Source: Candidatus Latescibacterota bacterium (GTDB lineage: Bacteria; Krumholzibacteriota; Krumholzibacteriia; WVZY01). Taken from it: a stretch of DNA of 64,000 nucleotides. The notes below the pieces were generated by a model. It made no database searches, was not told the DNA's origin, and worked only from the letters and a program-made list of their open reading frames with translations. This document shows, in pieces, positions 1 to 64,000 of the stretch (position 1 is its first letter; every line of letters starts with the position of its first letter). The position numbers and the translations under genes are program-made. Location: NCBI GenBank assembly GCA_963791045.1, contig CAWBQK010000010.1, positions 35,824 through 99,823 on the forward strand. Reading direction: 5' to 3'.

Positions 1-1024
1 GGAACGCCCGCTGGATCATCTCCTGATCCTCCCTGACACGCTGCGCGGCAAGTTCTGCGCGTTGTTCATCGAGGGTCTGGCCGTATGTCGCCGAGAACGT
101 AACGGGGTGTGACGATCCCGCCGTTTCTCGGCTGACGAGCCCGTAATCGAATCCAAACCCGTGAGTCGTCACGCCAAGACCAAACGAGAAGTTGCTGTCA
201 TCGAGCCCGACGCGAAGCGCCACGTATTTGGAGAAAGCATACTCGGCACCCGCTCTCAACTTGCTGTCCGCCTTTTCGGGCATGTCGAGCTGGAACATCA
301 CACGAAGCGCCGAGCCATTGCCGAAACCGTGGGTGTACCCCGCGCCCGCCATGATCGTCCGCGGTGTTCGATCCGCCTCGGTGTTGAGCTTGTGTTCGGC
401 GCCGACGAGATCCTGGAAATTGAGCCCGATCGAGAATTTGTCGGCGAAATTCGGGATATACCTGAAACCGAGGTCGACGCCCGGTGACGTGCTCGAGAAC
501 GGGTCCACCTTCTGGTTCACGATCTTTATCGAGGTCCCCGTCGCAATCCGTCCGGCAAGCCACCTTGGAGACCGTTCAAAGGCGTACCCAACCATAACCT
601 GGGTTTCCGAGTATTCCCCCTCCCCCAACGGGCGGCTGAACGAATCGTAGCGGTCGAACGTGTTGGCGACCCGCATGAGTCCGATGCCAAAAGCGCCGGC
701 GTTCAACGTAGGGAAACTTGCGCCGAAGAACGTATACGTCGCCTCGGTGAAATCGCCGTAAAGCGGCATATACATAAAGCTGAGCTGCTTTGTCTGGACA
801 TTCCTGAGCGTCGCCGGGTTCCAGTAGAGCGCGCTGGCGTCGTCCGCCAGGGTTGAATAGGCCCTCCCCAGCGAGATACCGCGAGATCCGGCGCCAAGCG
901 AGAACACACTCTGGGTGCCGCCGTCGCCATCCGCGGCGAACGCATGGACGGGGATCAGAAGCACACACAAGAATAGCGCCGCATACTTAAGAACGTGCTT
1001 GCTGTCCTGATACGATTTGGTCAT
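1..1024 (-). CDS. PorV/PorQ-family (FadL-like) outer-membrane beta-barrel protein with helical C-terminal extension; runs off the left edge (3' partial)
   Basis: Not in the ORF track because there is no stop in the window. Manual translation from ATG 1024: MTKSYQDSKHVLKYAALFLCVLLIPVHAFAADGDGGTQSVFSLGAGSRGISLGRAYSTLADDASALYWNPATL...RAGAEYAFSKYVALRVGLDDSNFSFGLGV...FDYGL. It has a signal peptide and the GARxxxLG..A..ADDASAxYWNPA signature, then helical LDEQRAELAAQRVREDQE. Confidence 0.85.
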   Translation of the reverse strand, partial: MTKSYQDSKHVLKYAALFLCVLLIPVHAFAADGDGGTQSVFSLGAGSRGISLGRAYSTLADDASALYWNPATLRNVQTKQLSFMYMPLYGDFTEATYTFFGASFPTLNAGAFGIGLMRVANTFDRYDSFSRPLGEGEYSETQVMVGYAFERSPRWLAGRIATGTSIKIVNQKVDPFSSTSPGVDLGFRYIPNFADKFSIGLNFQDLVGAEHKLNTEADRTPRTIMAGAGYTHGFGNGSALRVMFQLDMPEKADSKLRAGAEYAFSKYVALRVGLDDSNFSFGLGVTTHGFGFDYGLVSRETAGSSHPVTFSATYGQTLDEQRAELAAQRVREDQEMIQRAF

Positions 1025-1038
1025 GCCGGTTGTCTTTC

Positions 1039-4000
1039 TCATTTCGCCACCGCCATTTTGATCCGCGTCGATTTCGAACCCGCATCGAGCTGGCAGATAT
1101 ACATTCCGTTCCGGACTACTTCGCCCTTCATGTTGCGGCCGTCCCAGGTAACCTCCTGGGGGCCCTCCCCGGTCCCCGGTTCACCCTGTGAAAATTGCTG
1201 CTCGTAGACGAGCGAACCCCGCAGGTCGTAGACCCTTATCGAGACGGGCCCGGCGCTGTCCATAATATAGGCGATCCGCGTCAACTCGGACCCCGCCTGG
1301 AACGGGTTGGGATAGTTGTGCGCGTACTCTTCGAACTCATTGCTCAGGATAACGAGCGGCTGAGAGCGGATGCGGCCGTTGATGAGTTGGCCGGTGTCCT
1401 TGTCGACCACGGCGATCGGCCGCCCAGAGTCATCTTCCTTGACGGCGATCGAGAACGGGCCGTGGAACGAAAGGACGATTTCATCGAGCTGGGCGTTGTC
1501 GGCGATGCTCACCGCGAAGACAAACGAGTCTGCGTCCGCCTGCTCGAGGATGATCCCGCCGGCGTCTATAATCATCGGGTTTTGCGTGATGACTCCGTCT
1601 ATTTGAGATGCAGGATCACCTCGCCGATAAACGTAGAATTCGCTCAGCGTCCGCGACGGCTCGTCGACTTCGCGCCCGTTCTTGTCGAGAACGGTCACAC
1701 GGAAAGTGTCGATCCGGACCCGTTCGGCACTATCGTCGAGGTTCGCCACCTCAACGGCCAACATGTCGATGTCGGATGTGCCTTTTGGCACCACCATCGC
1801 TTCAATTCCGATGTCGCTTGAGAAATCGTCCACGGTGACGGCGTTCGACTCGGTCTGGATCGCGATCGGAACGGGTGAGCTCGAAACAACCGCGGCGGAG
1901 CCGGTGTTCTCATCGTTGGGAATCGAATCCATCACTACGCGGATGAGTTCTAGCGAAGTGAACCTGATGGGTGCACGAACTTGCCACGTTACGGTTTGGC
2001 CAACCACAAATGGCTGCAATGCATCTCCCGATACAATCGTGTATTCGAATTCTGGGTCTAGATCCGGAAGTTCGATCCTAAGCCGCGCGCCGGCCGTATC
2101 CACCGCCGCCAGGCCGAGATTATCAACCCGCGCTTCGATATCAAACACAGTGCCAAACGCCACGCGACCATCTTTTGCCTCATCGGGACTCGTGATCGAT
2201 GCCGTGTACTCGAGACGCGCCTTCGTGACCGTCGTCACCGACAGCGTGTCGCTGAACGCCTCGATGTTCTCGCTCGAGTTCTGGTCGAAGCCGTCATACG
2301 TCACCAGGAATGAGACCTCACCGGGAGTCGCCGGCGCATCGATACGCCATTGCACAGCTTTTTCGCCACCATCGCCGTCACCCAGCGAACGGACGCTCGG
2401 ATCGATCACCTGGCCGACGGAGCCCGACAGGACCTCGAGTGTCGCCGTGATATCCGTCGTGGTCGCCTCGGCAAGCGTCCGTGCCTGAATCGTGTAACGC
2501 TGGTCGGTGCTCACCGAATCGTCCATTGCGCCGTCCGGTGAAATCACCTCAAAGACAAGCGGTGTAAAACCTGCCTGCTCGACAATCTCGAGGGTCACGG
2601 GCGCCGTTCCGGTGGTCACGACGGCCACGTCGCCGCTGTTTCTCTCAATCGGACTGTTTGTAATGTCGACTTCGAGAACCTGGTTCGTCGCGGGGAGTTC
2701 GGGCGCGCGGATGTCCCACTGAACCGGTGCGCCGACAACAAATGTCTGAGTCGCCGGTGATCCCGCGTCGATCGTGAACCCCACCGGCACCGTAAGCGTG
2801 AGGGTTCCCGAGTTGTCCACCAACGACTGTCCGTTATTCGTGACGAGCGCCGTAAGTGTGAACGGCTGCTCCGTGCTCAACGTCGTCGCGTCAGGCGGGA
2901 AAGTAACGCTTGCCGCCACGTTTAGATCGGCCGGCGTCTGAATGAGCATATCGATCCAGCCGTCGTTGCTCGTGTTGTCCGACACGTCCTTGTCCCCGTC
3001 GATATCGTACCCGACGAAGGTCCCGTCAATCCGAAGCGCGCCGGACGGTCCCGTCGTCGTGCCGGTCGACTCGACATTGAAGACGAGCGTATCAACCGCA
3101 CCAGACCGAAGCGAATCATCGCCGGATATCTGGAATACCGCCACATCGGGGATCGTGTACTCGGTCGTCACGTTGCCGGCACCCGAGACACTGATAGAGA
3201 GCTTCGTGAGATCGGGCTTGAGCTGGAGCGCCGCAGCACCGTCGTTACGGACTATCATGCGCACCTGCCAATCCCTCAGCTGCCCTGCAGTGACACTGTC
3301 CTGCGAGGCCAACATATCAACAATAACGACCGCACTCTCGGCGCCGATGGTGACCCGGTCGCCCGCGAGCGTAAAGGATTTTGAATAGTTGTTACCGTTC
3401 TCCGTGCCCACGATGTCAACGGTGACGGGGTAAACACCCTCTGTAAACGTGCTCGGGATCGGGACTTCCTCAAAGGACAGCGTGGTATCGGTTCCCGCGA
3501 GGATCGCGCCTACCTGAGACGCGTCTAGACGCGGTTGGATCGTCGTGACTCCGTCGGTGAACGAGAACTTCGTCCGGTCCGCGTCGAGCACCAGTGTCGC
3601 CGCGCCAACGATCTGGCTTACGTCGATTCTGAATGTGGCCGGCTCGCCGGCATTGACATTCTTGGGAAGCAGGGTGCCGGCGATATAGGTCGGATTGGGC
3701 TCGAGCTGGACCTCCACGCTCCCCGCCTGCTCAGCGGGCGTCACTGGTGTACTCTGGTTGAGCTCGGTTCCCTCGATGTGCGCGGTGAAGGGCTGATTGC
3801 CGAAGCCGTCGCTGAAATCCTGGGTTTGCGGGATCGTAAACGTAAGGATCGTCGACGCCCCACCGGCAAGCAACAGCGATCCCACAGGGCCCGTGACCCG
3901 CGCGGGAATGCCGTTCGCAAACTCGATATAGGTTCTCGCCGGATCGTTGCTCAGCTGCACCTCCGCGCCGCCGTCGTTTGTGACGCCGACGCTGATCGTC

Positions 4001-7000
4001 CAGTCGTTCTCCTGGAACTTCGTCACCGGGTCCTGCGACGGCGTGACGGACGTAATCCGGATATCCCCCGGTGTCTGAACCGTAACCTCGTCGCCCGAGA
4101 CCGGGCCGACCGTCTGTTCGTCATCGGGGCTGTTTGCATCCTCGGCCGTCACCTGTCCGCTGATGGTATAGGTGTCGGGCGCTCCCGTGTCGGTCACGTC
4201 GAAGACCAGGGTATCCAGCTCGTTCTCCTCGAGCTGCACACCACCGCCCTGAAGCGCGTTCCGCGGCGTCGCGTTCCATCCGGCATCAGCAGGATCGAAC
4301 GCCACCGACGCCGAACCCGGTAGTAAGAGATCGAGCGCCGCTTCGCCGCTGTTCCGGACCACCATCCGGATCTGCCAGCTGGTCTGTCCCTCGGTGACGG
4401 TAGGCCGGCCTGGCGTGATACCGACGATCTCGAGGACGCCGGGCAGCTCGACGAAGAGCGCCCCCATCCCACCGGTCGACGTGTCGACCGAGATGGGGTC
4501 GTTGTTCACGAGATTGGTCGCATCGAGGAAACCCTCGATCGTATAGGCACCCGCAAGAGGCAGTGAACTTCCATTCACCACGACGTCAAACGTGATGCTG
4601 CCGTTCGTGCCGCCCGCGAGGGTGTCCGAGCCTGAGTCGAAAACGCCCGGCGGCGTGAATATAAACCGGCCGGACTGGTTGACCCCCGCCCGGATGAACT
4701 CAATATCCGTGTCGTCGAGACGAATGTCCGCGCCGCCCCTGTTTTCGACGTTGAGCGTGACGGTGAAGGACGCCGATTGATTGTTCGTGATCGTGTCCTG
4801 CGAGGTTGTGGTTGACGCGATCGCGACATCCGTCGCTTCGAGAACCTCGATCGATTGGGCAGTCAACATGAACTCGCGCTTGAATCCGTTGTCCATGCCG
4901 ACCACGCGGACCCGCGGTATGTACGACGGACTGGCATCAGACGACACGAGGGTCGACTGGAAGGTCAGTGTTTCCGAACCCGCGCCGGGAATCGTCGTCT
5001 CACCGACCAACGGGGCATCGAACGATTGGCCGTCGAACCAGAAACGTGTCGAGTCGGGAATGAGAACGAGATCGGCGCCGCCGTTGTTTGTGGCGGTAAA
5101 CGAAAAGCTTACCGAGGTTTGGCGGCTCACATCGAGCGGCACCAGACCACCGCCGTATGTAATGTCGGCCGGCGTCTACGACGTCTCACCAGGTCATCGG
5201 GATCAACATCGGCCGTGTTCAGGACCGTCGGAGAACGACCCGCCGTTCTCGTACCCTCCAGGTGAATCTCAATCGGGATAGCTTCCCCCGTGAAAAGCCG
5301 TTGGCACAACCACATCGTCGAATACGATCGTCTGCTGGGCCCCTCCGCTGATCGCAACGGGCGCCGCCAAGAGCGCGGTATACACGTATGCCCGTGCCGT
5401 CGTTGAATGTGATGAAGCTCAACGTCTCGTCGAGCGTCACCGTGGCTTGCGCCGGTATTCTGAACGTCAAGAGAGAATCCATAACTGTCGTCCGCGCGTC
5501 ACGACAGGCGGATCGAGAGTGCTGCCGATATACGCGAGATCCGCGGCGCTTTCGATCGTCCAATTGCCGAGCGGATTGGGCGATACGTCATCGTCACTCA
5601 CCGGCGCGCCGTCGACAGTCCCCGACACGGCGGCGTTGATCGTGAACGTGCCGAGTTCGGATGTCGGTCGCACGGTCACGCTCAGGGGAATCGTGACCCT
5701 CTGCGGGGCCTGCGGGGTTCCGGGGGGAACCGAAACCGCTGGAGAAATGGTTTGTGAGACACCGTCGTACGCGCCGCCGGAGAACGTAAAGGACACAAAG
5801 TCGATGAGCGCCTCGACAGGGCCCTGGTTCTCGACGGTCACCCGGATGACTCCCGTCTGTCCGCGGCTTACCGGCGAGTCGGCGCTGATGCCCAGAATCT
5901 CGATCGCCGTCAGGCGGAGCGAATTGACCGGGAGTGAAACGCCCGCCTTGGCATAGTCGGACTCGTATTCGTCCCGTCCGACAAAATCGACGACGGGCGT
6001 GTACTGCCCCGGATCCATTGCGCTGCTGATCTGACTCGATGAAAACGTAAGAGTGTCCGTCTGCCCGTCAAGGACCCACGTCGCCGCCGTGAGGAACGCA
6101 GTGAAGGTCTCATTCCCGTCCGAAAACTTGAAAGCCGTTCCACCGAAAAGCCGCACATTGGTGGCGTTTTCGGTCTCGACATTAACGGTGAAGCCAACTG
6201 TCTGCCCGGCCTGCACAATCGATGGGGTCGGCCCGGAAACGACAGTGAGGTTCGGCACCGGCGCGAAGTACGACGTTGCCGTCGTCGTGGCCACGGGATT
6301 ATCGAACGCGGTGAGCGTCACAACCGCCGCCTGCACCGTCGTCTCCACTATCGCGCCCGACCGGAGTATGAGCGAGACCGTCCCGTCCGACGCGGTCGCC
6401 CGCTGGTGGCCCGGCGCGGGATCGACGTCGTCCGATTGAATCGTCCCTCGATCCGTCGAGACGGTAATGAGCGTGCCCGTGCTGACAATATTTCCGTAAG
6501 CATCCTGGATGGGGTCTGTCTGAATCGTGACCTCACTCGCGCCGTTCGCCGTGATCGTATCGGGCTCCGCCGACACAACGATGGCATCCGGTATCCCCGG
6601 CTCGATCGCAATGGGAACACTCGTTCCCGTCGCCCCACCGCCCTGGGTTTCCGCTTCGATTTGTATCGGTCCGACGGTCTCCCACGCGAGTGTTGTCGCC
6701 GCCTGTCCGCCGGCGAGCTGTATGGGGTTCGTGCCGAATCCCGTGATGGCTCCGCCCGGGAGGACGCGGAGATCAACAAAATTTGTCGCGGTCGTCACGA
6801 GATTGTCCTGAGCGTCGAGCGCCCGGACGGTAAATCCGAACGCGGTCCCCGCTTCTTCGGTTGTCACATCGGGAATAACTTCATAACTCGCAATGTCGCC
6901 GGCAATCGATGTCACGGTAAACGTCTTCGTCTCGAGCGCCGGTGGATTCCCGTCCTTGATGCTCGAACGCACGTTGTGCGCGCCGGCCTGGCCCGACACG

Positions 7001-10000
7001 GTTAAGTCCACGGTCGCGACACCGGACGAATTCGTGCTCGTGATCCCGCCGTCGGACAGCGATGCGGTTCCATCCGGAGCGAGTGTAATCGTGAATACGA
7101 CGGGTTCACCGGATACGGGATTCCCGTACTGGTCCGTGACCGTCACCGCGAGCGGCTGAACCTGCCCGACGGGGACCAACGTACTGTCTCCGGACGTGAT
7201 GGTTACCTCGTAGGCCGTTGCGGGCACAATCGTGATCGTTGTGCTTGTATCTGCCGGCTCTCCGCCGCCCGTACTCACAGTGAGGCCGGTCTGTTCGACA
7301 ACATCATCGCTTACCGATGTTGTAAACGCGCCGTTCGTTAGTTGTCCCGAGGGCGGGCTAAAAACGGGGTTCCCCGTCGTGCTTCCGAATACGACGGTGG
7401 TAGCGTCATCGTCGACGGGGTTGTTGTTTGTATCGTAGGCCTGAACGGTCACGTTGACCGATTCGCCGGCGGTCCACGTGGTCTTGTTCGGACTGAATGT
7501 GAAGAGATAATAAGAAATCGCCGTACTCGCCTGCGTGGTCACATCGAATTCGACCGCGTCGGTATAGGTGCCGTTGTCGAAGTTTGCGCGGACGCGGTTG
7601 AGACCAACGGTTGATCCCGTCGTGAGAACCGTCGAGACCAGGCCGTTTACGTCGCTCGTATCGGAGTCCGGCGCAACCGAGGCTCCGCCCGGATTCTGGA
7701 TGACCGAGAACGACACGGTCTGGCCCTGAACGTTGTTGTCGTAAATATCCCGTACTTCCGCCTCGAGAGGAGGCGTATCGTTTCCAGCAATGATTCCCGT
7801 AAGTGGATCCGTGATTCGCGAGAGATGGTGGGCAATATTGGGCGACACTGTGACGGTGCCGCTGTACCCCGGCGATCCCGGTGCGCCGGAGACGCGAACC
7901 TTCATCGTCCTCGCTTTGTTGTACGTTTCGCCGACGGCGGCCTGACCCGACATGAGCGTCGCGCTCCGAACCGTCAGCTGTTCTCCGGCGGGAAGCTCGG
8001 CCTGTGTCCCCGCGTCCACAGCGTCGAGATCAATCGCGCTGTTCGCCCCGAGAACAGTATTGCCGTACTGATCTTTCGCGGTGACATTCACAACGAACGG
8101 ATTACCGGCTACGACACTTACCACCGTGTTCACCACATACGTGGAGATGGTACCCGTATCGGTGATTTGAATCGTTTCATCGCCGGACCCAAGCACACTG
8201 CCGTCGTCCTCCGCCAAAAAGTCCCACGTGCCCGTAATAAATCCGCGCGCGTAGACGGTGACCTGTCCGCCGCTCAACACGAACTGCGTTGTCGGGGTTC
8301 CAAAATCCGAGGCGCTGAATACGAGACCGCTTCCCGATTCGGGGACGATGTTGACGGTACTCGTGTTGGCACCGTCAAGATTTCCCGTCCCGTCAACCGC
8401 CTCGACAAGAAACGAAAACGTCTGACCGGCGTTCTGGGGGTCGGGCGTCGGTCCCGTGATCCGCAGAAGCGTCGCCTGTCCAACAACACTCGTGAACGTG
8501 ACCGGGCTCACCGCGGCGGTGGCCTGATCGCCAAAGGCATCGATCGTATCTGACTGACCCGCGGTGGCCGGCGCCTCATAGAGCACCGATATCTGGCCAT
8601 TCGAATCGGTCAAACCGTTTTGGAGCGTAGGGCCGCCACTGGTCGGGTTGGTCGATCCGGGGTCGGATTTGAGAGAACCCTGGGCAATATCGGAAATAAA
8701 AATCGAGACCTGTTTGTTCGGAACCGCGTTTCCATACGTATCAACGAGCGTCGCCTCGACGGGCGGAGCATCCGTCTCGACGGTGACATTCTGGCTCGCG
8801 GGGGTGAGCGTGATCTGGGTTCCCGCCCCCGGCGTACCCGTCGCACCGAATAGCACATCGACGGCAGGCGAACCGGTCAAATAAGCGGTCGCCGTATTGG
8901 AGCCGGTCGTCGTGCCCAGTCGCCAATCCTGGCAGGTTGCTTCACCCAGAATGTTCGTCGTCGCCTCGTTCTCGACGGGGCCGCCCGAAATGACATCGAT
9001 TAAACCGCCGCCCGACACGACTTCAAACGTCACCGACGCGCCGTCGACGAGGTTGTCGTAGTCATCCTTGACACGGACGACGAGATCGTTCGCGACGAAC
9101 TGGTTGACCACGGCGGCTTGAGTGTTACCCGAGACGATTTCGATTTGCTTCTCCGGACCATTGTCGACGACGATGGACCCCGAATTGTCCGACACGGGAC
9201 CACTCTCCGCACCGAGCGTAATCGTCTCCTTTTTGAAGACCGTCACGTTCAAGACAGCGTTCCCGCCATCGAGCGGATCGAATGTGTAGAATTTGCCGCC
9301 GCCATCCAGTCCAATTGTCCCCGACCCCGAACCTTCGGACCAGTTCCCCTCCGTCCCCGTCGTCGTTGTCGACACGTAGACTTTTCCCGCGTAATCGGTA
9401 ATCACGTTTTCTTCCGCATCCCGGGCCTCGAGCGTCACCGGCTCGGGCGTTCCCGCCACGGCGTTCCCATCCACCGTCCACACAAACGTCGCCACCGCAC
9501 CCGGCGTAAAATCGATCTCGACCGTGCCGGTGATCGGCGTTCCGTCGATCGTCGCGCTTACAGTCCTCGGACCGGTCGTCGTGCTCGCGAGGCGGCCCGT
9601 CGTCGTCCCGTCGACGCCGGTCAGCGTGGTCGGCTGCGTGAGAATCGCGCCGTCACCCGGCGGGTTGATCGAAAGCACAACGAGCGCGCCTTCGATCAAG
9701 TTGTCGAATTCGTCTTTTGCCGTGATTGTGATGATGCTCTCGTCGGAGCCGTTCGCTTCGACCGAAAGCGGATTGGCCGCAATCTCGCTCAAATCCGGGT
9801 CCGCCGCGCCCGCGATGAACGCAACCGTCGCGCTGTCCGCGATCTCCACACCGTTCGCCGTTGCTCCCACCTTGACCATCTCGGCCTTTGTGTTCCGTAC
9901 AATTCCCTGGGCCTGGCCCGTCGGATCCGTCGGAGCCGGCGGGTTCACGGGGAGCGCACTTCCCGTCACACCGAGCGACACGCTGGCGCCGGATACAGGG

Positions 10001-11365
10001 TTTCCGAATTCATCCCTCACGATCACGCTTACGGGGCTTTGATCAACGCCGTCCGCGACCGCTTCCGGATCGGTCGTCATGACCGTGGACATAGTCGAAT
10101 GGACGGAGGCCGCATCGACCATCACGGTCGTCGTGCCGCTCAAGCCCGGCAGGAGTCCGTCGTCGGTGAGCATGATCACGCGATGCGGCTCGTTCGCGTT
10201 CGTGTCCGTATTACGGTAGTCGATCACGGCGGTCTGGTCACCCGTATTCATCTGCAGAACCGCAACCGGGGTCGTGTGATCCGACGGAAGATAAAACTGA
10301 CCCGAGGAAGACTCTTCCGGAGCGGGCGAAATTTCGGAAGCGTCTGCGGTGGGGGATGACGACAACAGGACCTGGCGGTTCTGCGTCAGGTTCGTTGGAT
10401 TTCCATAGGCATCGACGACATCGATCGTGTAGGACAAAAATTGTCCCGCCGTGAATGTTGCGCCGTTGGGAGAAAGGATGAGTCTTGCCGGCGGCCCCGG
10501 AATTACCGACTGCATCTGGGTCGCGTCTCCCCAGGATTGACCATTCGCTGAAGCGGTCAGGACGGGAGAACCCGGGATCGTATCCGCATAGAAAAACGAC
10601 ACACCCGAAACCCCTGCCGGCATCAAAACACTGGTGATCGGCGCGCCTTCGCTCGTCGCGGCAAAAGAACCTGTTCCCGATGTCGACGAGAGGTCGATCC
10701 ACTGACCGCTCGCCATTTCGCTCACGTTTCCATACACATCGCGGGCTTCAACGTAGATCGGTCCGCCCTCGCCGGTTGTCGCAAACACAAAGGCCGTGCT
10801 TGTAAACACGAGTTCGACGGCCGGCCCGCCTTTGAGATTGATCGTCGGCATATCGTTAATCGGAGACACCGCGACGCCCGTCGGGTCGCTTTCCACAACA
10901 AACGCGACCGCTGGATTTGCCGCCGTTGGCGGGGTAACGCGTGCACCCGGATTGGCGCCGCCACTGTCGTCGCCATAGACGATGGTGATAAGTTTGGGTT
11001 CGGGAAGGTCGTCGATGCCGATTGTCAAAATCTGCCCGGAAACCGACGGAGTCAATACGGCGCCGTGATCGCTGCTGACGGTGACATAACCCGTTGAGGC
11101 GGGGTTTGTGACCTGTGGTGGCGCCCAACCGGCGGGAAACGTTACGGCAATGGTCCCGTTCGTGAAGTTATCGTCGGGATCATAAACAATCGTCCACGTC
11201 CCCGGCGTGATCAACAACGCCCGAGTCCGGCGTTATTGTCGCATCGCCGCTCCCGGGCCCGATCAATCCCGCGATCGCGGGCGCCGTGTTGCCGAGGAGA
11301 AAGAATGCAAAGGGGATAAGTATCAACAAACCGCGTAGTGGTCTAATAGCACGCAATTGAATCAC
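1039..11365 (-). CDS. Giant (~3400 aa) secreted Ig-like/invasin (Big-1-like) repeat surface protein with C-terminal FlgD-Ig/T9SS-like sorting domain; interrupted by several frameshifts
   Basis: The signal peptide (GTG 11365, IQLRAIRPLRGLLILIPFAFFLLGNTAPAIA) joins ORF 5467..11217 via a 1-nt shift near 11212. That ORF links to ORF 1039..5142 through an indel-rich patch at ~5150-5500. Recurrent VxDxYGNxV Big-1-like motifs; C-terminus HNYPNPF...IRVYDLRG...WDGRNMKGEVVRNGMYICQL...KMAVAK. Confidence 0.8.
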
Positions 11366-11778: not shown

Positions 11779-12162
11779 CTATCGAGGCCGAACCCGAACG
11801 ACCGAGTTTTCCCCGGAGAAACCGTCTTCGACCGTCTCCGGATTGCTCGGATCCGATGTCCATTCGGTGCCGTTCACAACGAATTTGTACTCGTAGACCC
11901 CTGGGGGGAGGTTGTAGTACAACGTCCATTGTCCATCGCCATTCTCGTCGACCATCGGGTCGGCGGTTGGTGACCAGTTGTTGAAATCGCCGACGATATA
12001 GACCTTTTTTGCATCCTGGTCGAAATACCGGAAAATCACTCCGTCCTCGACGATTTCAGGGCCCGCACCAATGCCCCCACCTTTCGAGCCGCCGAAGCAA
12101 CCGGCGAGCGCAAAAGACAGGAATACAACGCCAAACACCAATCTCGTATGTTTAATACTCAT
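11779..12162 (-). CDS. Lipoprotein with CBM48/AMPK-beta-like glycogen-binding domain
   Basis: Start MSIKHTRLVF at 12162; lipobox LAGC; domain AKKVYIVGDFNNW...GQWTLYYNLPPGVYEYKFVVNGTEWTSDPSNP...DGFSGENSVV. Confidence 0.85.
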   Translation of the reverse strand: MSIKHTRLVFGVVFLSFALAGCFGGSKGGGIGAGPEIVEDGVIFRYFDQDAKKVYIVGDFNNWSPTADPMVDENGDGQWTLYYNLPPGVYEYKFVVNGTEWTSDPSNPETVEDGFSGENSVVRVRPR

Positions 12163-12169
12163 AAGTAGT

Positions 12170-12610
12170 TTACCGGATTTCCAGCCGGTCGCTGTCGGAG
12201 TACAAAATGACCTGCGAACACGTGCCTGTCGGGCCACCGGATACCTCTTCAGGCACCCCCGGATCAAGATGCCACGTGTTTTCGTCCACCCAAAACAAAT
12301 ATTTGTACCGCCCTGCCGGCAACGCAACGGATATTTCCCAGATACCGTCGCTATCCTCATCCTTCATCAAACCGATATTGGCCTCCCCGGCGCTGCCGTC
12401 TCCTCTCGCCCAGTTATTCTCGGGCCAGTTACCGGCGAGCTGAACCCTTCGCGCCGACGGAGAGTAGAACCGGAATACGATTTCACCCTCCTTGACGGCG
12501 GGTCCCGCGCTCAGACTTCGGGGGGCGATATATCCGCAACCGGCCATCGTGCAGATCAGCACGGCGGCGATGATCAAACCTGTTATTGCCCGTATACGGA
12601 GCATCATCAT
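12170..12610 (-). CDS. Lipoprotein with CBM48/AMPK-beta-like glycogen-binding domain
   Basis: Lipobox MAGC; ARRVQLAGNWPENNW...DGIWEISVALPAGRYKYLFWVDENTWHLDP. Confidence 0.85.
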   Translation of the reverse strand: MMMLRIRAITGLIIAAVLICTMAGCGYIAPRSLSAGPAVKEGEIVFRFYSPSARRVQLAGNWPENNWARGDGSAGEANIGLMKDEDSDGIWEISVALPAGRYKYLFWVDENTWHLDPGVPEEVSGGPTGTCSQVILYSDSDRLEIR

Positions 12611-12620
12611 TCGGATTGTC

Positions 12621-14654
12621 CTAGAAGAACACGATCACTTCAAGTTTTAACACCCTGTTGTCCTGAAGGGATTCCTCCTGGCGGTGAATTCCCTCGCCCA
12701 GAACCGCCGCGTCGGCACGTCCCACCCCCACAGGAATCGCCTGACGAAGATGTTCAAGACGGCCGATATCGGAATACTCGTTGATCACCGGATCGAGTAC
12801 CACGGGATCGAACCCAAACCCCACACTTGCTTCCACCCAGTCCCTCCGGTACCCGGCTTCAAGGTAGAGCGAATAAAATGTTTTGTTGAGCGACCACGAG
12901 TCTTTGTCGTAAACGGCAATTCGCGAGTCGAGCTGACCGTAGATATATTTGTAGATCCGATGATCCACCACCGCCCGGAGATCCGCGTATTCGACACCAC
13001 CAAAAAATTCCCGCATCACCAGTGCGCCGCTCGCAAATACGGAGGTCCGCGCCGCGTCGGGAATTCGCGACAACCGCGACAACACGCGCTCGTTCCATAC
13101 AAACGCGCCCCCAAACTGGGTGCTTCGCGGGTTATCGAACACGACCATATTCTCCACGGTCAATTTGTCGCGGTAGTCGAGCCAGAAGTTTCTCGCGGGC
13201 GTGAAGAAGTGGAAATCATCGGGCGTGGCGCCGTAGTCCTGATCGAGATATCCAAGTCTCGCTGTTGCTTTCCATTCGTCCGCGCCATACTCGAGGTCAA
13301 CGCCCGTCGTTTGAATCGTTGCATCCGCGGGCTCGTACAAACCCGCTTTAAATTCGAAACGGCTCCACGAGTAATACGCGCGCGCCGTCCACCGCGATTT
13401 TTCGTATTCGAGCGCTCCATGCCAGCGCTTGCTCGTCTGCATTGGAATCTTCTTGTCCGACGGGTCGGTATTTTGACCGACCGAAATGTCACTACCCGAA
13501 ACGGAAACCGGGTATGTCGACACCGCGTCGGTCCGGACATCGGCCGTCGCCCTTCCCAGCCCAGCAACGGCGGCGAGATGCGACAAAAACCTCCAACGGA
13601 GCCACACTACGTCGGCGCCCCAGAATTCACGCGTTGTGTATGCCGTCGCCACGCCACCCGAATCGCCTTGTTCAACCGAGGCCAGTGTCCCCGGTTGAAA
13701 TCCCTGGTTACCGCGTTTGACATATCCGAGCTTGAAACTCCCCAGGTCGGCAAATACTTCGAACCCCCACGTATCCATCCCGCCAAATGTATTTTCGTAA
13801 CCGTACACCGGCTTATCGCTCTCGCCCGCCAACTCTGTCGAATCGACGGCAACGGGCGGACCGGGACGCGTGCCGATCTTGTCGGTGTAGAGCGCGCTGA
13901 ATTCGACGTTCAACGGGAGCGGCAGCACCGCGGCGACACCGTGGCGTTCGTATCCGGCGTTGTAATCGAACACGCCGACTTTTCCAAAAAGGTTAAACGG
14001 GTCGGACGATGTCCAGGTGGTGTCGTTTTCGAACCCCCTCACAACCTTGTCGTCAAAATGGAGGTCGATGAACCCGCGATCGAAATCGACCTGCGCTTTC
14101 AATGGCGAGAGACTCCACGAATCGTTCAACGTCTTGAAGTCGACGCTCGCGTCAATCCGCTTGCTCGAATGTTTAAATATAAAATCGATCCGCTGGTCGG
14201 AACTGGTAGCACCGTCATCGAGCAAAAACGCCCCCGCATACCGAAGGTGCGGTTGAAGCACCGCGACGACTTCTTTCTCTACCTCCTCGGTCGACCCGAA
14301 CGCAAGCATCCCACCCCGCTCTTCGAGAACCAGCACGGATCCCTTGGCCGCGTCCACCGGCGGGTTGTCGGGATCCACGACCCACTCCCCATCGACCACA
14401 AACTTGTAACGGTAGGTTCCCGCGAGAAGAAACAGATACACCGAGTACTTTCCGTCGACCACTTCCATTTTTTCCAGCGTGGGGTTCCAATTGTTGAAAT
14501 CCCCAACAAGGAAGACGTTCTTCGCTTGGGGCGCATCGAGCGTGAAAATAACTTCATCATCGACAATACGAACCGCCGCTCCGGACGTGCCGGCAATCAT
14601 AACCGCCGCGAGCACGCAGACGATGAGGCATATGCAACCGGGCCGCTTTCTCAA
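12621..14654 (-). CDS. Outer-membrane beta-barrel protein with N-terminal CBM48-like glycogen-binding domain
   Basis: Signal peptide; APQAKNVFLVGDFNNWNP...GTYRYKFVVDGEWVVDPDNP; aromatic-rich amphipathic strands; ends LKLEVIVFF (terminal Phe, BAM-type signal). Confidence 0.8.
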   Translation of the reverse strand: MRKRPGCICLIVCVLAAVMIAGTSGAAVRIVDDEVIFTLDAPQAKNVFLVGDFNNWNPTLEKMEVVDGKYSVYLFLLAGTYRYKFVVDGEWVVDPDNPPVDAAKGSVLVLEERGGMLAFGSTEEVEKEVVAVLQPHLRYAGAFLLDDGATSSDQRIDFIFKHSSKRIDASVDFKTLNDSWSLSPLKAQVDFDRGFIDLHFDDKVVRGFENDTTWTSSDPFNLFGKVGVFDYNAGYERHGVAAVLPLPLNVEFSALYTDKIGTRPGPPVAVDSTELAGESDKPVYGYENTFGGMDTWGFEVFADLGSFKLGYVKRGNQGFQPGTLASVEQGDSGGVATAYTTREFWGADVVWLRWRFLSHLAAVAGLGRATADVRTDAVSTYPVSVSGSDISVGQNTDPSDKKIPMQTSKRWHGALEYEKSRWTARAYYSWSRFEFKAGLYEPADATIQTTGVDLEYGADEWKATARLGYLDQDYGATPDDFHFFTPARNFWLDYRDKLTVENMVVFDNPRSTQFGGAFVWNERVLSRLSRIPDAARTSVFASGALVMREFFGGVEYADLRAVVDHRIYKYIYGQLDSRIAVYDKDSWSLNKTFYSLYLEAGYRRDWVEASVGFGFDPVVLDPVINEYSDIGRLEHLRQAIPVGVGRADAAVLGEGIHRQEESLQDNRVLKLEVIVFF

Positions 14655-16144: not shown

Positions 16145-17046
16145 TCGCCCACCCCCTCTTCATCCAATTCCGGAAGCGATATCCCCACCGAAAAAAGATA
16201 GCTCAGCCCGAGCATGTCGTGCGATACGACACCGGCGTCGATTACAACGTTGGACACCTTGAGACCGATTCCGCCGGTGACGCTACCTTCGCGAAGACCG
16301 GACCGCAATCGCAGGAGCTTCCCCGCCTTGACTTCGATACCCAAGAGGTCACGCCACTTGCCGTCCTGTCCACGCTCGCGTTCATACACCATCGATACAC
16401 GCCGGTCCCAATGATACGCGACGCCGATCGCGTGGACCATTTCGAGACTCGTCGGGCCGGCCCACGAGCCGCCTTCACGTCCGTTGAGGGCGAAATCAAA
16501 CTCGGGCTCACCGATGTTGCGAACCGTGTACCCGAAACCGATGACGGGAAAGGGCCGCAGGAGAACGGACAACACTCCGGAGACGGCGGTTTTCGAATCG
16601 GCTACACCGGGGTACGCGACATGGGTGACATCGATTGCGCCGCCAACCGAGAGCGAGGCGTCCTGCGACGTCCGTATCAGATCGCGGCCGTAGGCCAGCG
16701 AAAAAAGGTCTTCGGAAGTTACTTCGGAGAGAGAGAATCGATGCCACGACAAACCAAACGCGCCGATTTTTGTCGGTATCACGCCGGCGAGAAAATACTC
16801 GTTCAGGTCGGTCAATCCGTATGGCTGGGAAATTGTCGAGAGAACGCTCGCCGTCGGGATTTGCGTCAACCCCGCAGGGTTGTAGATGACGGCGCTCGCA
16901 TCGTCCGCCACGCTGACAAACGCGCCGCCCATTGAGAACGCGCGGGAGGAAACATAGAGACGCTCGAAGTGGGCATCGGCCGTCACCGGCACGAGCACAG
17001 CCGCAAGGATAATCAGAAGAATGGTTGATCGCCGCCGAATTATCAA
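16138..17046 (-). CDS. PorV/PorQ-family outer-membrane protein
   Basis: TTG start at 17046 with GGAG upstream; signal peptide; SSRAFSMGGAFVSVADDASAVIYNPAGL signature. Confidence 0.8.
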   Translation of the reverse strand: MIIRRRSTILLIILAAVLVPVTADAHFERLYVSSRAFSMGGAFVSVADDASAVIYNPAGLTQIPTASVLSTISQPYGLTDLNEYFLAGVIPTKIGAFGLSWHRFSLSEVTSEDLFSLAYGRDLIRTSQDASLSVGGAIDVTHVAYPGVADSKTAVSGVLSVLLRPFPVIGFGYTVRNIGEPEFDFALNGREGGSWAGPTSLEMVHAIGVAYHWDRRVSMVYERERGQDGKWRDLLGIEVKAGKLLRLRSGLREGSVTGGIGLKVSNVVIDAGVVSHDMLGLSYLFSVGISLPELDEEGVGEW

Positions 17047-30345: not shown

Positions 30346-30410
30346 GATGTCTTTCCTCGCTTGGTTATGCAAACCCGGGGTCGGGGTGGGGATCGCAAAC
30401 CCAGAATCCG

Positions 30411-60112: not shown

Positions 60113-60877
60113 ATGACAGAAACGTATAAAAAGATAGCGGCCAGCGAAGTGTTTTTTGTCGCTGACAGCCACTTCAGGGACCGGGCGCTGCCCGGGGAAG
60201 CCGAGCGCAGGGACCGTTTCGCGCGGCTCCTCGAAACGGTCCCCTCGGACGGGGCCGTATTCCTGTTGGGCGACATATTTGATTTCTACTTCGAGTACAA
60301 GTCGGTCGTGTCCAAGCGGTACTTCGACATCTACCACGCGCTCTACGAGTGCTCGTCGAGGGGCGTCGAAGTGCACTTTCTCGGTGGGAACCACGACTAC
60401 TGGTTCAACAATTTCCTCGAGGACGAGATTGGCGTGGCTTCGCACGGCGAACACCTGTTCGTCGAGTGCCAGGGACGCCGGATCTGGTGCACGCACGGAG
60501 ATCTCTTCATGCCGGGTGACGAAAACTACACTACCGTCCGGTCGATCCTCCGGAATCGGTATGTCATCGCCGCGGCGAAGATAATTCACCCCGATCTGAT
60601 GGACGCCATCGCCAAGAAGGTCTCATACGGGAGTAAAGCGAGGGACAGGGGATCTGTCGAAGACATGGCCAACCAGCTCGCCGCCAGGCCAACCCAGCAA
60701 TTCTTCTCGCGCGGTAACGACGTGTTCGCCATGGGGCACGTCCACTACCCGCTCCACCAACAGAAAAACGGCAACGATTTTCTGATCGTCGGCGACTGGA
60801 TCACAAAATTTACCTATGGATTGATGAAGGACGGCCGGATCTCGCTGGAGACCCTCAGTTCCGGAGAGACAGACTGA
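60113..60877 (+). CDS. lpxH: UDP-2,3-diacylglucosamine diphosphatase (LpxH-like metallophosphoesterase)
   Basis: FVADSH, LLGDIFDFYFEY, GNHD, HGD, MGHVH, VGDWI motifs. Confidence 0.85.
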   Translation: MTETYKKIAASEVFFVADSHFRDRALPGEAERRDRFARLLETVPSDGAVFLLGDIFDFYFEYKSVVSKRYFDIYHALYECSSRGVEVHFLGGNHDYWFNNFLEDEIGVASHGEHLFVECQGRRIWCTHGDLFMPGDENYTTVRSILRNRYVIAAAKIIHPDLMDAIAKKVSYGSKARDRGSVEDMANQLAARPTQQFFSRGNDVFAMGHVHYPLHQQKNGNDFLIVGDWITKFTYGLMKDGRISLETLSSGETD

Positions 60878-61769
60878 TCCGGTGGCTGTCGCCGAGGTCG
60901 TTGCTCCCCAGTAGCATCCCATAGTCAAAATCGAACTTCCGGTACCGCACACCCAGGCCGAACGTCGCGCCCTGGGAATCGTATCCCCCCTTGAAACCCG
61001 CACGAAGGAACAACAGACGCGAGTAACCATACTCGGCGCCAATGTGCTGTTTGGAGTTGCCGTCATTGGGAAAGATGACATCGAGCGTGAGAAGAATGTC
61101 CCCTTTCAGGGTCTCGACGTGGCGGTCATAGCTACCGCCGATCTTGAACATGCGCGGCAGCGCGAACTCTTCTTCAACGAACTTCATCGGCGACCCGAGA
61201 TTCGCGAGCACCGCGGCAAACTTGACACCCTCGATCCGGCTCACATGATAAACACCAAGGTCGAAACCCAATCCACTCGCGGACGAGTTATCGATTTTCT
61301 GGTATATCGGTTTTACCGCGACGCCAGCAGAGAGGTTCGGGAGAAAATAGCGCGAATAGGCCAGTGCAAACGACACGTCGTATGCGCCAAACGTCCCCAA
61401 CGGCACTTCCGACGGCGTATCCTCGTACCGGTCCATGTCGTCCATGTAAAGTCCGGTAAAACTGATACCAAACGTGCCGTAGTCGGTCTCATGCGTAACG
61501 GCGAGCTGCTCAAGACGGACGGACTGGAAATACTCGTTATGAGTAAACATCATGTTGGTTCCGAGAACGGGACTCATCGCGGCGGGATTCCAGTATACCG
61601 ACGACGCGTCTTTTGCGACCGCAGAGAACGCCTCACCCATACCGGCCGCACGGCCGCCCATACCGAGACGGAGGAACAGCGCTCCCGAATCGCCGGGATC
61701 ACCCGCTAGAAGACTCGTCGGCATGACGAGAACAAGAAGCAATAACACGAGGTGAAGGGTTTTTCGCAT
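60855..61769 (-). CDS. PorV/PorQ-family outer-membrane protein
   Basis: AAGGAG RBS; signal peptide; FLRLGMGGRAAGMGEAFSAVAKDASSVYWNPA; GAEYGY...LRAG; DLGDSHRISL. Confidence 0.9.
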   Translation of the reverse strand: MRKTLHLVLLLLVLVMPTSLLAGDPGDSGALFLRLGMGGRAAGMGEAFSAVAKDASSVYWNPAAMSPVLGTNMMFTHNEYFQSVRLEQLAVTHETDYGTFGISFTGLYMDDMDRYEDTPSEVPLGTFGAYDVSFALAYSRYFLPNLSAGVAVKPIYQKIDNSSASGLGFDLGVYHVSRIEGVKFAAVLANLGSPMKFVEEEFALPRMFKIGGSYDRHVETLKGDILLTLDVIFPNDGNSKQHIGAEYGYSRLLFLRAGFKGGYDSQGATFGLGVRYRKFDFDYGMLLGSNDLGDSHRISLSLRN

Positions 61770-61782
61770 GGTCCGTCTCCTT

Positions 61783-64000
61783 TTAGCGGAGTATAGCAAA
61801 ATTCTTGACGAAAGACTCGGATCCGCCGCCCGATTCGACGACCATCCTCAGCATATAAACGCCGCTTTTTAATTGTGTCACATCTATCGCCTCGTCGAAC
61901 GGTGTATTTGACGCATCAGCCGGATTGCCCGTCTTGGACAGATCGGTGACCCGTTCGCCTTCGAGGTTATAGATTTCGACCCGAACCGTCGATGTCTTGT
62001 TGAGAACGATTCGCGCATGAACCTCGCCGTCTCTAACCGGGTTTGGATAAATCTTGAACGACCCCGATTCCACGACCCCGGCCGCCGAAGCGGGTGGTGA
62101 ATTGTCGGCCAGTCGTCCCTGCCGGGCGAGCCCATGCTGGTATGAAAGCCAATCCCAGTCTCCGCCCATAATCGACCCGGGGAGAGACTGGATGGACAGC
62201 GACATCATCGGAACCGTGAGAACCGAATCGTACACACCATCAATTGTGACGATCGGGTGCACCAGGCCGAGACTCACGAGGCTCATTTCATCGGTTCCCG
62301 CCAGGTCGGCGATCATCGGCGTCGCGACAATGCCGTCGGGGGCTTTTCGCGGGGAACCCGCGACACGCGCGCCGTTCGGAGCAAAGCCATGGATGGCGCC
62401 GTCGCCCCACGGATAGAGAATTTCTACCCCGTCATTTCCATCGATATTCGCGACCATCGGGCTCGCGAGGATCGCGTCGAAGTAGAGCTCGGGAAAATCG
62501 CCGAGTTGAGTTTGACGAAGCGGCTGTGGCCAATTGGTGCGCAACCGCGCGTTGTGCTCGAAGATATAAAAGTTGTCATCGTCCAAGAGGACGATTTCGA
62601 TAGTCCCATTATTGTCTACGTCGCCGAGCGCGGGCGCCGAAGGGCTCCCCGAGTTGAGTGCGACAAGTTCGATAAGACCATCCGTCGATTCGCCCTCAGC
62701 CGGAACCCGGCCGTGCCGATTGAAAACGGCGAGTCTGCCGTCGAGCAACGTAAATACCGCTTCGTCAAAACCGTTGTGGTCGAGATCGCCCGTCACGACC
62801 GGCGAAGCCGCGGGGAAATCAACGGGCAGCGGCAACTCCGAAGCCCAGGTCACGGAAACCGGCGTCAACGGCGCCGCCTCTCTCCGAAATTTCACCGGAA
62901 AATACGAGAACCCATAAAAGCCGCTTGTGGTATCGGACCAGACGAACGCAACGCCTTCCGTGTCTTCGCCGGCGTGTCCCAATGCGCCGTAACCGGGCGG
63001 CGACGAGGTCTGGGCCCTGATGCTTCCACCCCAGACGATCGAGAACGAAGCCCCGATCAGCTGGTTCCTGACACCCGCGCCATTTACAAAACTCACGCGA
63101 AGCGAGTCGGAAACATGTTCGATAATGACTATCTCGAGGACCGAGTCGTCGTTGACGTCGATAAGCATCGGCGGGGCGGCCAGCGGCAGACCGGCGAAAA
63201 GCACGCCGTCTGTTTGCGCGTCACCGTCTCCGTCAAAAACCTCCGACCCATCCCGCTTCCACGCAAAGACGCGTCCCTGGGGATCGGCGCCGATAAGATC
63301 CACGCCCCCATCGCCGTCTATATCCCCAAAGGCCGGTGGTCCAATCCACATGGCATCGGGCGCGGGTATATAGGGATCGATCGTTTCAGGGTTGCCGTCT
63401 CCGTCGACGAATTCTCCGCCGTCACCATTGAAAGCGTAGACCCCGGCCAGATCGGCAAAGACCACGATCTCAAGACCGGCCGCGCCGTCAAGATCGATCG
63501 CCGAAGGCGGCTGATAATCGCCCGTCGCGATCCACCGGGTTCGTTTGTCTTCGAAGGGAGCGGCGAATGATATGGAACAGGTCATAATCGGACCCGTCTC
63601 GGAAATGTCGGTTACCGTGATCCCGGTAACGGCCCCGGCGTTCGAGAAACTCCCCGGACTGGTGTCGGGACCAAAGGTTGTATTATTTCCCACACGGTAT
63701 GTGTCGAAATGGCTGCCGAACGAGAACGGATCCTGGAGACCGTCGAGGTCCTGGACGCCGTCGGCTTCTTCGAGATCGACGCCTTTTCGCGACACAAAAT
63801 CATTTGGCAAATAGCCGGTTTGTATCATTTGACGAATGACGTTTTCATCGACGTGCCACACATACATCCCCGTCCCCGTGTGGATAAACGGCACGACGGC
63901 GTTGTAGATGTCCCGCTCTTCCTGGAGTACGAACGGATCTGTCAAAACCGTCAAAAAGAAATCAAACTCGGCACCATCGAGCGAGTCGGTGTTGTCGGGG
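61783..64000 (-). CDS. Secreted protein with M6/immune inhibitor A-like segment, FG-GAP repeats and T9SS-like C-terminal domain (5' partial)
   Basis: Frame open to the window end; GMYVWHVDE...GVDLEEADG..DLD...FGPDTSP..SN.G..TGITVTDIS; repeated GDxDGDG.xEIV; KIYPNPV...IYNLEGE...SGVYMLRM...KNFAILR. Confidence 0.85.
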   Translation of the reverse strand, partial: PDNTDSLDGAEFDFFLTVLTDPFVLQEERDIYNAVVPFIHTGTGMYVWHVDENVIRQMIQTGYLPNDFVSRKGVDLEEADGVQDLDGLQDPFSFGSHFDTYRVGNNTTFGPDTSPGSFSNAGAVTGITVTDISETGPIMTCSISFAAPFEDKRTRWIATGDYQPPSAIDLDGAAGLEIVVFADLAGVYAFNGDGGEFVDGDGNPETIDPYIPAPDAMWIGPPAFGDIDGDGGVDLIGADPQGRVFAWKRDGSEVFDGDGDAQTDGVLFAGLPLAAPPMLIDVNDDSVLEIVIIEHVSDSLRVSFVNGAGVRNQLIGASFSIVWGGSIRAQTSSPPGYGALGHAGEDTEGVAFVWSDTTSGFYGFSYFPVKFRREAAPLTPVSVTWASELPLPVDFPAASPVVTGDLDHNGFDEAVFTLLDGRLAVFNRHGRVPAEGESTDGLIELVALNSGSPSAPALGDVDNNGTIEIVLLDDDNFYIFEHNARLRTNWPQPLRQTQLGDFPELYFDAILASPMVANIDGNDGVEILYPWGDGAIHGFAPNGARVAGSPRKAPDGIVATPMIADLAGTDEMSLVSLGLVHPIVTIDGVYDSVLTVPMMSLSIQSLPGSIMGGDWDWLSYQHGLARQGRLADNSPPASAAGVVESGSFKIYPNPVRDGEVHARIVLNKTSTVRVEIYNLEGERVTDLSKTGNPADASNTPFDEAIDVTQLKSGVYMLRMVVESGGGSESFVKNFAILR

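Follow-up and report, generated by a model that had tools for sequence, protein, structure and literature searches.

Three cargo-barrel gene pairs in the window

The DNA analyzed here (the window) is a stretch of 64,000 nucleotides (nt) from contig CAWBQK010000010.1 of a Candidatus Latescibacterota bacterium, whose genome comprises 3.66 Mb in 21 contigs (completeness 81%). The window carries three gene pairs, each made up of a gene for a protein with a C-terminal domain (CTD) of the kind associated with a type IX secretion system (T9SS) and, directly downstream, a gene for an outer-membrane barrel of the PorV/PorQ family. Genes in the window lie almost throughout on the minus strand, as do all pairs and CTD protein genes described in this section. 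The closest named relatives of one of the barrels (W3, below) are metagenome-assembled genomes (MAGs) of Candidatus Latescibacterota (71% identity) and of Krumholzibacteriia, which places the organism outside the Bacteroidota.

In the first pair, only the first 341 amino acids (aa) of barrel W1 (1..1024) are encoded within the window; the complete gene (C10:34940-36865 in genome coordinates) encodes 641 aa, including a C-terminal coiled-coil and TPR extension, and the C-terminal 319 aa match TPR-type models. The gene upstream encodes the C-terminal 1367 aa of cargo 1 (1039..5142), with a CTD in the last ~90 aa (about 1042..1314) and a tail reading RIKMAVAK; at the junction, KMAVAK is followed by TGA, 14 nt and an ATG at 1024. 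Further upstream and in the same frame, a 1916-aa open reading frame (ORF) at 5467..11217 represents part of a giant protein whose immunoglobulin-like (Ig) repeats are of the Big_1 and invasin-D3 types (Pfam Big_1, 6e-45; Invasin_D3, 2e-35) and is the probable N-terminal part of cargo 1. Translation of 5035..5520 showed several in-frame stops between 5142 and 5467, and frameshifts occur as well, while the orthologous frame in a complete related genome, G011, encodes 3181 aa (row 2503110-2503373). The two ORFs are thus probably one giant gene that has been broken by assembly errors or mutation.

The second pair consists of cargo 2 (17060..18211), a 383-aa protein with a signal peptide, a weak CTD and the tail RASFAVIR, and of W2 (16138..17046), a divergent 302-aa member of the PorV/PorQ barrel family that starts with TTG; here FAVIR is followed by TAA, 13 nt containing GGAG, and the TTG at 17046. 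In the third pair, cargo 3 (61783..64000) is cut at the window end but has 1161 aa in the genome, with a CTD at 61786..62070 and the tail VKNFAILR, and is followed by the 304-aa PorV/PorQ-family barrel W3 (60855..61769); FAILR is followed by TAA, 13 nt containing AAGGAG, and an ATG at 61769. Cargo 3, which contains an FG-GAP repeat, is similar to the family "T9SS-dependent M6-like inactivated metalloprotease" (NF052323; E = 3.8e-33, under the model cut-off). All three junctions were read directly from the sequence.

CTDs were scored with the type A model TIGR04183 (cut-off 23 bits) and with FlgD_ig. Cargo 1 scored 24.3 and 27.7 bits, respectively, and 68.3 bits (E = 5.9e-19) against a hidden Markov model (HMM) of bulk CTDs only, while cargo 3 scored 33.7 bits with TIGR04183. 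Cargo 2 matched no curated CTD model but was recognized by an HMM built from the unpaired CTDs of its own genome (E = 1.4e-7; Z = 24,659 ORFs). The type B CTD model (CHU_C) matched none of the three window cargoes, and type A models matched cargoes 1 and 3 only.

Three further CTD tails in the window belong to genes without an adjoining barrel. An S8 subtilase with a CTD (22199..24028; Peptidase_S8 2e-37, FlgD_ig 37.6 bits) ends in KKLVLIRR, with no barrel gene downstream. A 444-aa protein (26668..28002; TIGR04183 19.6 bits, PorZ-CTD region 34.7 bits) ends in GRLIIIR and, being below the cut-off, was left out of the tail statistics. A fragment with a bulk-type CTD (32495..32953) ends in KKMVLLK; its CTD is split over two frames, with TIGR04183 positions 1-36 and 46-70 in different frames (C10:68295-68791).

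The ten intact barrels of the genome, W1 to W3 among them, were compared with known families. With the NCBIfam PorV/PorQ model (NF033709; cut-off 90 bits), W1 scored 91.4 bits (a marginal match) and W3 172.8 bits, while W2 (39 bits) fails the model. Profile-profile alignment (hhalign) joined the W2 orthogroup to the W3 orthogroup (probability 99.3%, E = 5e-20, 253 columns), so that W2 is a true relative of the family despite its low score. A profile of the ten barrels matched Flavobacterium johnsoniae PorV (6h3i_F) over its full length with E = 3.3e-31, compared to 1e-6 or worse for TodX/FadL-type channels. An AlphaFold2 model of W3 alone (mean predicted local distance difference test [pLDDT] score 68.5; residues 13-59 poor) is an all-beta barrel past residue 70, and PorV was its top Foldseek match (8gl6_F, 2.1e-12, TM score 0.66; 6h3i_F was also matched), followed by FadL (3.7e-7). 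When single sequences were searched against the PDB, W3 matched PorV weakly (E = 3.9e-4) while W1 and W2 had no match, and a profile of the W2 group alone returned nothing meaningful.

Narrower models do not place the barrels any further. The PorV (NF033710; cut-off 250) and PorQ (NF033711; cut-off 220) equivalog thresholds were not reached by any barrel scored, with 73.1 (PorV) and 97.9 (PorQ) bits for W3, 69.5 bits (PorQ) for W1 and 135.4 bits (PorV) for the barrel adjacent to PorU. The PorP/SprF model TIGR03519 gave 22.9 bits (cut-off 90.55), and only W1 showed a partial match to Pfam PorP_SprF (PF11751; 25.6 vs. 22.3 bits), in the C-terminal half. With the FadL/TodX family Toluene_X (PF03349; cut-off 29.7 bits), W1 and W3 scored 17.8 and 20.3 bits, over some 35 N-terminal residues only. 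Judged by these comparisons, the barrels belong to the PorV/PorQ family but are unclassified within it; the family has expanded to at least 10 paralogues in this genome.

An earlier reading of the window from its letters alone (the sequence-only reading) had reported the three PorV-like barrel genes starting 13-14 nt past the stop of a CTD protein gene, the three contrasting tails of unpaired genes and a host outside the Bacteroidota. All three points hold, with the reservation that KKMVLLK is the tail of a CTD split over two frames, and the barrels group with PorV rather than with FadL.

Pairing and tail signatures across the genome and its relatives

CTD and barrel genes were surveyed genome-wide. 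Two CTD models matched 115 frames, 98 of which survived a filter (a score above the cut-off in one model or both, and a match ending no more than 30 aa from the C-terminus); with cargo 2 added by hand and one duplicate removed, the tail statistics rest on 7 paired and 91 unpaired CTDs. The CTD of PorU (22.3 and 26.0 bits) was removed by the filter and is thus outside these statistics. CTD genes, about 100 in number, represent roughly 3% of the genes in the genome, yet among the intact PorV-like genes, 10 in all, 8 lie directly 3' of a CTD ORF (gaps of -4 to 146 nt), a frequency above chance. One of these eight pairs is the canonical PorU-PorV pair. Two loci are disrupted: a PorV-like gene at C15:87210-88047 is broken into three frames, and a cargo-barrel pair at C9:154862-156082 is interrupted by frameshifts or TGA. 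They represent either pseudogenes or assembly errors.

Bulk CTDs end in T-[KR]-K-M-V-L-L-K. The motif [FM]-A-[VI]-x-[KR], which the sequence-only reading had derived from the three window pairs, was found in 3/7 paired and 0/91 unpaired tails; its carriers are just the three pairs that defined it, and none of the 4 other pairs (0/5 if PorU is counted) shows it. The motif is too narrow. A broader feature, Ala or Gly at the fourth position from the C-terminus (-4), was present in 5/7 paired and 2/91 unpaired tails (P = 6e-6), and in 2/4 of the pairs outside the window as compared to the same unpaired set (P = 0.008). Moreover, when the last 8 residues were removed, CTD bodies still clustered by pairing (5 changes, compared to a mean of 7.8 in shuffled data; 0 of 500 shuffles were as low), and the CTDs of W1 and of three pairs designated C6, C9 and C1 form one clade. 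A genome-wide association of tail class with barrel adjacency, as had been predicted, is thus observed here, and it extends to relatives.

Twelve genomes of the same family or order were searched with the ten-barrel profile, which found 2-14 barrels per genome (9-14 in each of the nine with a completeness of 90% or more). For closer analysis we used the 73 matches with E ≤ 1e-29 in eight better-assembled genomes (G003, G004, G006 and G008 were excluded before counting) and inspected 900 nt upstream of each. A CTD ORF was located just upstream of 49 of these 73 barrels when the frame with a CTD match was taken; choosing the longest ORF instead misses three (46/73). The barrel tree resolves ten to eleven orthogroups, with a support of 100 in the Shimodaira-Hasegawa-like approximate likelihood ratio test (SH-aLRT) for each named one apart from two cases: C18 and its one homologue have 99, and one barrel, L147_G007, joins C6 (five core rows, 100) only in a surrounding clade with 93.

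Seven of these orthogroups are conserved cargo-barrel modules, namely PorU-PorV and six others, three of which are represented in the window. In the W3 orthogroup, a CTD precedes 8/8 barrels, with tails of the form K[TP][FV]A[IV]x[RK] and Ala or Gly at -4 in 8/8. The corresponding figures are 7/8 for W1 (the miss is at a contig end), with the tail [RK]IAVAK and a small -4 residue in 7/7; 7/7 for W2, with the tail [FVA]AV[IV]R in 6 of 7 relatives and a small -4 residue in 6/7; 5/5 for C6, with [RK]KV[AG]V[LIV]R and 5/5; and 6/6 for C9, with RKI[AG]xVR and 6/6. Pooled over these five groups, 32/33 tails in relatives carry Ala or Gly at -4. The PorU-PorV group (upstream CTD in 8/8) shows RGK[VLI]xK[IV][EQR], with a small -4 residue in 1/8, and the C1 group (7/7) shows RE[IV]FL[FY] followed by 2-5 residues, with 0/7. 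Three orthogroups are never paired: one that follows a sigma-54 regulator gene (0/8), one that follows a barrel protein ending in GFGFEF (0/8) and the C17b type (0/6). The strict motif occurs in 7/8 tails of the W3 group and 2/7 of the W2 group, and in none of the W1, C6, C9, C1 or PorU orthologues. Most paired tails retain a Lys at -6 or -7.

As a measure of the unpaired background, we used relative G011, a single contig (96% complete), in which 89 of 102 CTD matches were read and 87 unpaired tails were kept. Ala or Gly at -4 was observed in 0/87 of these, the residues being V (67), L (8), T (8), I (3) and M (1).

The signature is not confined to the tail, as paired CTDs score far under the bulk along the whole domain: they scored 30-65 bits against the bulk-only HMM, compared to a bulk median of 121 bits. 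Each paired group shows its own strongly conserved pattern along the whole CTD; W3-type CTDs, for example, lack the "WDG" motif of bulk CTDs, and across nine genomes their K89 and A92 do not vary. Alignment of paired CTDs to the bulk HMM with hmmalign cut off most of their tails. W1 and C6 barrels are sisters in the barrel tree, which, together with the CTD clade of W1, C6, C9 and C1, points to co-duplication of CTD and barrel.

In a wider search, with the single W3 barrel as query, a CTD ORF was also located just upstream of the W3-type barrel at 30 of 80 loci from other candidate phyla of the Fibrobacterota-Chlorobiota-Bacteroidota type (Zixibacteria, Neomarinimicrobiota, KSB1, WOR-3, Desantisbacteria, Elusimicrobia and others). 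Of the named Latescibacterota- or Krumholzibacteria-type MAG loci tested, 5/5 have the M6-like protein of cargo 3 as their cargo, while in other phyla passengers vary and several upstream CTDs match the PorZ CTD best.

Finally, we modelled W3 (residues 23-304; 13-row alignment) together with the last 95 residues of cargo 3 (9-row alignment). The interface score ipSAE was 0.95 in 3 runs, compared to 0.00 for the best of 3 unrelated-protein controls, with 100% contact agreement among the runs and a partner pLDDT of 90. The score mark used is reached by 116/157 solved complexes and 2/215 mismatched pairs, figures that apply approximately here, with user-supplied alignments. In the model, the interface includes CTD residues 88-92 and 94-95, and Ala92, at position -4, contacts residues 112, 127 and 159 of the barrel; two of these, F127 and I159, do not vary among 13 orthologues. 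The altered last strand would be part of the interface between CTD and barrel rather than the whole recognition signal. Inspection of the barrel alignment by eye revealed no clear pattern of compensatory changes opposite the -4 residue.

Proposed cognate carrier modules and alternative explanations

The arrangements closest to the window pairs are PorU-PorV, PorZ-PorQ and SprB-SprF, and we thus read the pairs as cognate modules in which a barrel of the PorV/PorQ branch serves as carrier or anchor for one protein with a type-A-like signal, an interpretation to which we give a probability of roughly 0.6. Under this model, the paired protein would leave the cell through SprA with its CTD bound to its own barrel, which would serve as its dedicated carrier and, probably, hold it permanently at the surface by non-covalent anchoring, the CTD staying uncleaved; cargo with the bulk tail KKMVLLK would go through the general PorV and be processed by PorU. 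The last strand of the paired CTDs, usually hydrophobic-[A/G]-[V/I/A]-x-[K/R], would contribute one part to a distributed interface. From the synteny, the conservation, the tail and domain signatures and the family membership of the barrels, all of which were observed, we infer in this model that the paired CTD and barrel bind each other specifically, that the CTD is not cleaved and that the barrel acts as an anchor.

Known systems provide precedents for separate parts of this model. In Porphyromonas gingivalis, PorU and PorZ keep their CTDs and are bound to PorV and PorQ, according to a review (PMC10202324), which also puts forward the hypothesis that cognate PorV-like barrels shield the CTD from cleavage. 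As in these complexes, a type-A CTD protein would sit here on a 14-strand barrel of the PorV/PorQ family with its CTD uncleaved, and porU and porV are adjacent here too. Unlike in P. gingivalis, at least 6 more barrel paralogues are present, each adjoined by a CTD protein of its own, giant Ig-repeat proteins are among the passengers, the host is outside the Bacteroidota and no PorZ scored over the cut-off. Type B CTDs use cognate, co-encoded PorP/SprF barrels, as stated in PMC9143113 and PMC12618676, where orphan cargoes are described as sharing a barrel in trans. SprB-SprF and PG1035-PorP-PorE resemble the window pairs in having one cargo per co-encoded barrel of the FadL superfamily as carrier and anchor, and SprB-SprF also in the giant adhesin adjoining the barrel, but the barrels described here are of the PorV/PorQ family and the CTDs are type-A-like (TIGR04183/FlgD_ig). 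The best match of our barrels in both sequence and fold is provided by the SprA-PorV-substrate complexes of F. johnsoniae (6h3i, 8gl6 and related entries), a species whose type A CTDs are all described (PMC12618676) as using one PorV. A near-invariant Lys near the CTD C-terminus contacts PorV there (PMC10994853), which parallels the Lys of most paired tails; one PorV with a plastic pocket takes all type A cargo in F. johnsoniae, as compared to the conserved cargo-linked paralogues found here. Barrel-held uncleaved CTDs (PorU-PorV, PorZ-PorQ) and the logic of cognate barrels (SprB-SprF) are already known, and in the Bacteroidota cognate barrels are established for type B signals only; candidate cognate pairs of the PorV/PorQ branch for type-A-like signals would be new. 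Among the papers searched, none mentions both Latescibacterota and type IX secretion.

If the model is correct, cognate-barrel logic would extend to the PorV/PorQ branch and beyond the Bacteroidota. With seven conserved CTD-barrel pairs, all with type-A-like signals, as a natural panel to be set against about 90 bulk CTDs per genome, the lineage provides material for deriving and testing specificity rules.

Several observations weigh against the cognate-module model, or at least against a general role of the small -4 residue in it. The PorU and C1-group tails lack this residue, and the tail of the C18 pair (KKMILLK) is of the bulk type; the pairing of C18 is also not conserved, and as the sole homologous barrel in relatives has no upstream CTD, the adjacency may be accidental. 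Ala at -4 also occurs in two unpaired cargoes (C1:6693 and C9:137549); the genes they face are convergent, and no barrel adjoins them. Since the CTDs of W1, C6 and C9 share ancestry, the feature perhaps arose in three independent lineages rather than five, and the related genomes in which it was counted are themselves non-independent samples. At phylum distance, Ala at -4 is not universal, as many tails of distant W3-type pairs end in GKF[AV][IV][IV][KR], often with V at -4. As to the complex model, PorV-CTD complexes have been solved (8gl6 and related structures), so the high score may show likeness only, and the controls were unrelated proteins rather than non-cognate CTDs or barrels.

An unlikely alternative is that the paired proteins are themselves secretion or attachment machinery comparable to PorU and PorZ, each barrel being the seat of one accessory enzyme or scaffold. 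PorU-PorV is indeed one of the seven modules, cargo 3 resembles an M6-like family, and its module recurs in all five named MAG loci tested, many upstream CTDs in distant phyla match the PorZ CTD best, and the names of the NCBIfam models "PorU2" (NF052324) and "PorV2" (NF052325) imply a second sorting pair. These two models and the M6-like model NF052323 are partially matched by cargo 3 and by barrels W3 and C17a, but all scores are far under the cut-offs (114 vs. 600 bits; 65-131 vs. 325 bits), and no paper found in our search describes "PorV2" or "PorU2" as such. Moreover, cargo 1, a giant adhesin-like Ig-repeat protein of about 3,200 aa, and the cargoes of C6 and C9, likewise Ig-repeat proteins, resemble surface effectors.

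The sequence-only reading had proposed a two-class sorting code in the last five residues, with [F/M]-A-[V/I]-x-[K/R] directing cargo to a PorV paralogue and KKMVLLK to the general pathway. The strict motif is absent from unpaired tails and present in 7/8 orthologues of the W3 pair, and the -4 Ala lies within the modelled W3 interface. However, the motif was derived from the same three pairs in which it is found and is missing from the four others in this genome and from most orthogroups in relatives, while the seven modules carry seven different tail signatures and paired CTDs differ from the bulk over the whole domain. A code of two classes is therefore improbable and, given the PorU and "REIFLF.." groups and the bulk-type tail of C18, does not describe these data. 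What does stand of the broader proposal, that PorV paralogues act as cargo-specific adaptors or anchors which read a CTD subclass, is the conservation of the pairs and the distinctness of their CTDs.

It is more improbable that the barrels are FadL-like uptake channels that capture nutrients in concert with the secreted protein encoded upstream and bind no CTD. PorV belongs to the FadL superfamily, Toluene_X matches weakly (17.8-20.3 bits) and FadL/TodX proteins are the next-best structural matches, but these scores are under the cut-off, the barrel profile matches PorV far better than TodX (3e-31 vs. 1e-6), and neither the group signature, which is borne by the CTD and not by the passenger, nor the parallel to PorU-PorV would be explained. 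Least probable is that synteny and tails are relics of old porU-porV-like duplications, all cargo using the general PorV: the CTD and barrel trees suggest module duplication and shared ancestry can mimic a shared "code", but seven modules have kept their adjacency across order-level divergence (gaps mostly <130 nt), and group tails that are near-invariant while barrels have diverged to 40-60% identity indicate continued selection.

Secretion machinery and neighbouring genes

A homologue of SprA was found in 13/13 genomes (543.6 bits summed in the genome containing the window). PorU scored 554 bits (cut-off 420), and the best PorV-family gene (217 bits) starts 79 nt downstream. GldL was not found over the cut-off in any of the 13 genomes (0/13, with two weak matches), nor was GldN or, with either of two models (TIGR and Pfam GldM_1st), GldM (0/13 each); in the window's own genome, GldK gave only a match of 23.6 bits, below the cut-off. 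As no control genome carries these families, the sensitivity of these searches is unproven and the motor genes are to be regarded as not found rather than proven absent. Of the T9SS components that had been suggested as a search target from the window (sprA and porKLMN), SprA is thus present, along with PorU and PorV, while GldL, GldM and GldN, and in the window's own genome GldK, were not detected above cut-off. The T9SS-like system of the lineage may lack the known motor and ring or have very divergent versions of them. PorZ was not found over the cut-off either; the best candidate (C7:127525-129951) scored 79 bits (cut-off 260), has no adjoining barrel and ends in KMVSLIR, with Ser at -4.

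Several further genes related to this machinery were observed. A 1152-aa protein (C3:97380-100838) has a CTD that is sister to that of PorU (SH-aLRT 98) and ends in GKLVHVK. The porU-porV genes are followed by four more genes (C7:204942-209044), all with signal-peptide-like N-termini; two have no family match, one has an NHL-repeat match and one shows a short partial match to SprA (34.6 bits). An unpaired PorV/PorQ-family barrel (C17:328320-329633) has a C-terminal extension weakly matching the C-terminal region of RlpA, which recalls anchoring by PorP-PorE. This extension may be a SPOR-like peptidoglycan-binding domain.

The W1 and C6 loci are followed by signalling genes (HAMP-domain RsbW-like or PP2C, SiaA/RsbU-like). 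At the C6 locus of the present genome, the TPR protein is encoded by a separate adjacent gene, and barrels of the W1 and C6 types in relatives have open frames of 620-1060 aa. These loci of barrel, TPR and signalling genes may represent a signalling link that spans the envelope. One could go further and combine these elements into a T9SS of Krumholzibacteria/Latescibacterota-type bacteria that has no recognisable PorKLMN motor, with at least seven co-evolving CTD-barrel lineages, specificity through a pocket for the -4 residue, and outside-in surface sensing by W1 and C6, a combination that we regard as rather doubtful. In such a system, carrier specificity for type-A-like signals could be read from natural sequences, the small -4 residue would pack on an invariant pocket of the barrel, and the giant Ig-repeat protein of W1 and C6 would be held by a barrel with a periplasmic TPR domain, fused in W1 and likely also in C6-type relatives; as these barrels adjoin partner-switching genes (HAMP, RsbW, PP2C), the module might sense a surface from the outside in.

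The remaining observations concern genes around the window pairs. Downstream of W2 (11779..16144) are a 497-aa ORF without a family match and two CBM48/AMPK1_CBM proteins, the latter with weak "T9SS plug" matches (17.7-20.1 bits; cut-off 100), and upstream of cargo 2 is a gene for a DUF4388 protein with a motif for binding of cyclic di-GMP. Amid the CTD protein genes are three lipoprotein-like ORFs of 777, 793 and 625 aa (24226..26559, 28078..30459 and 30411..32288, respectively) with zero Pfam or NCBIfam matches, of which the first two appear alike by eye. The glycyl-tRNA synthetase beta subunit (36131..38304) is split into two ORFs overlapping by 4 nt (Pfam positions 1-130 and 132-534), which is a frameshift or an assembly error.

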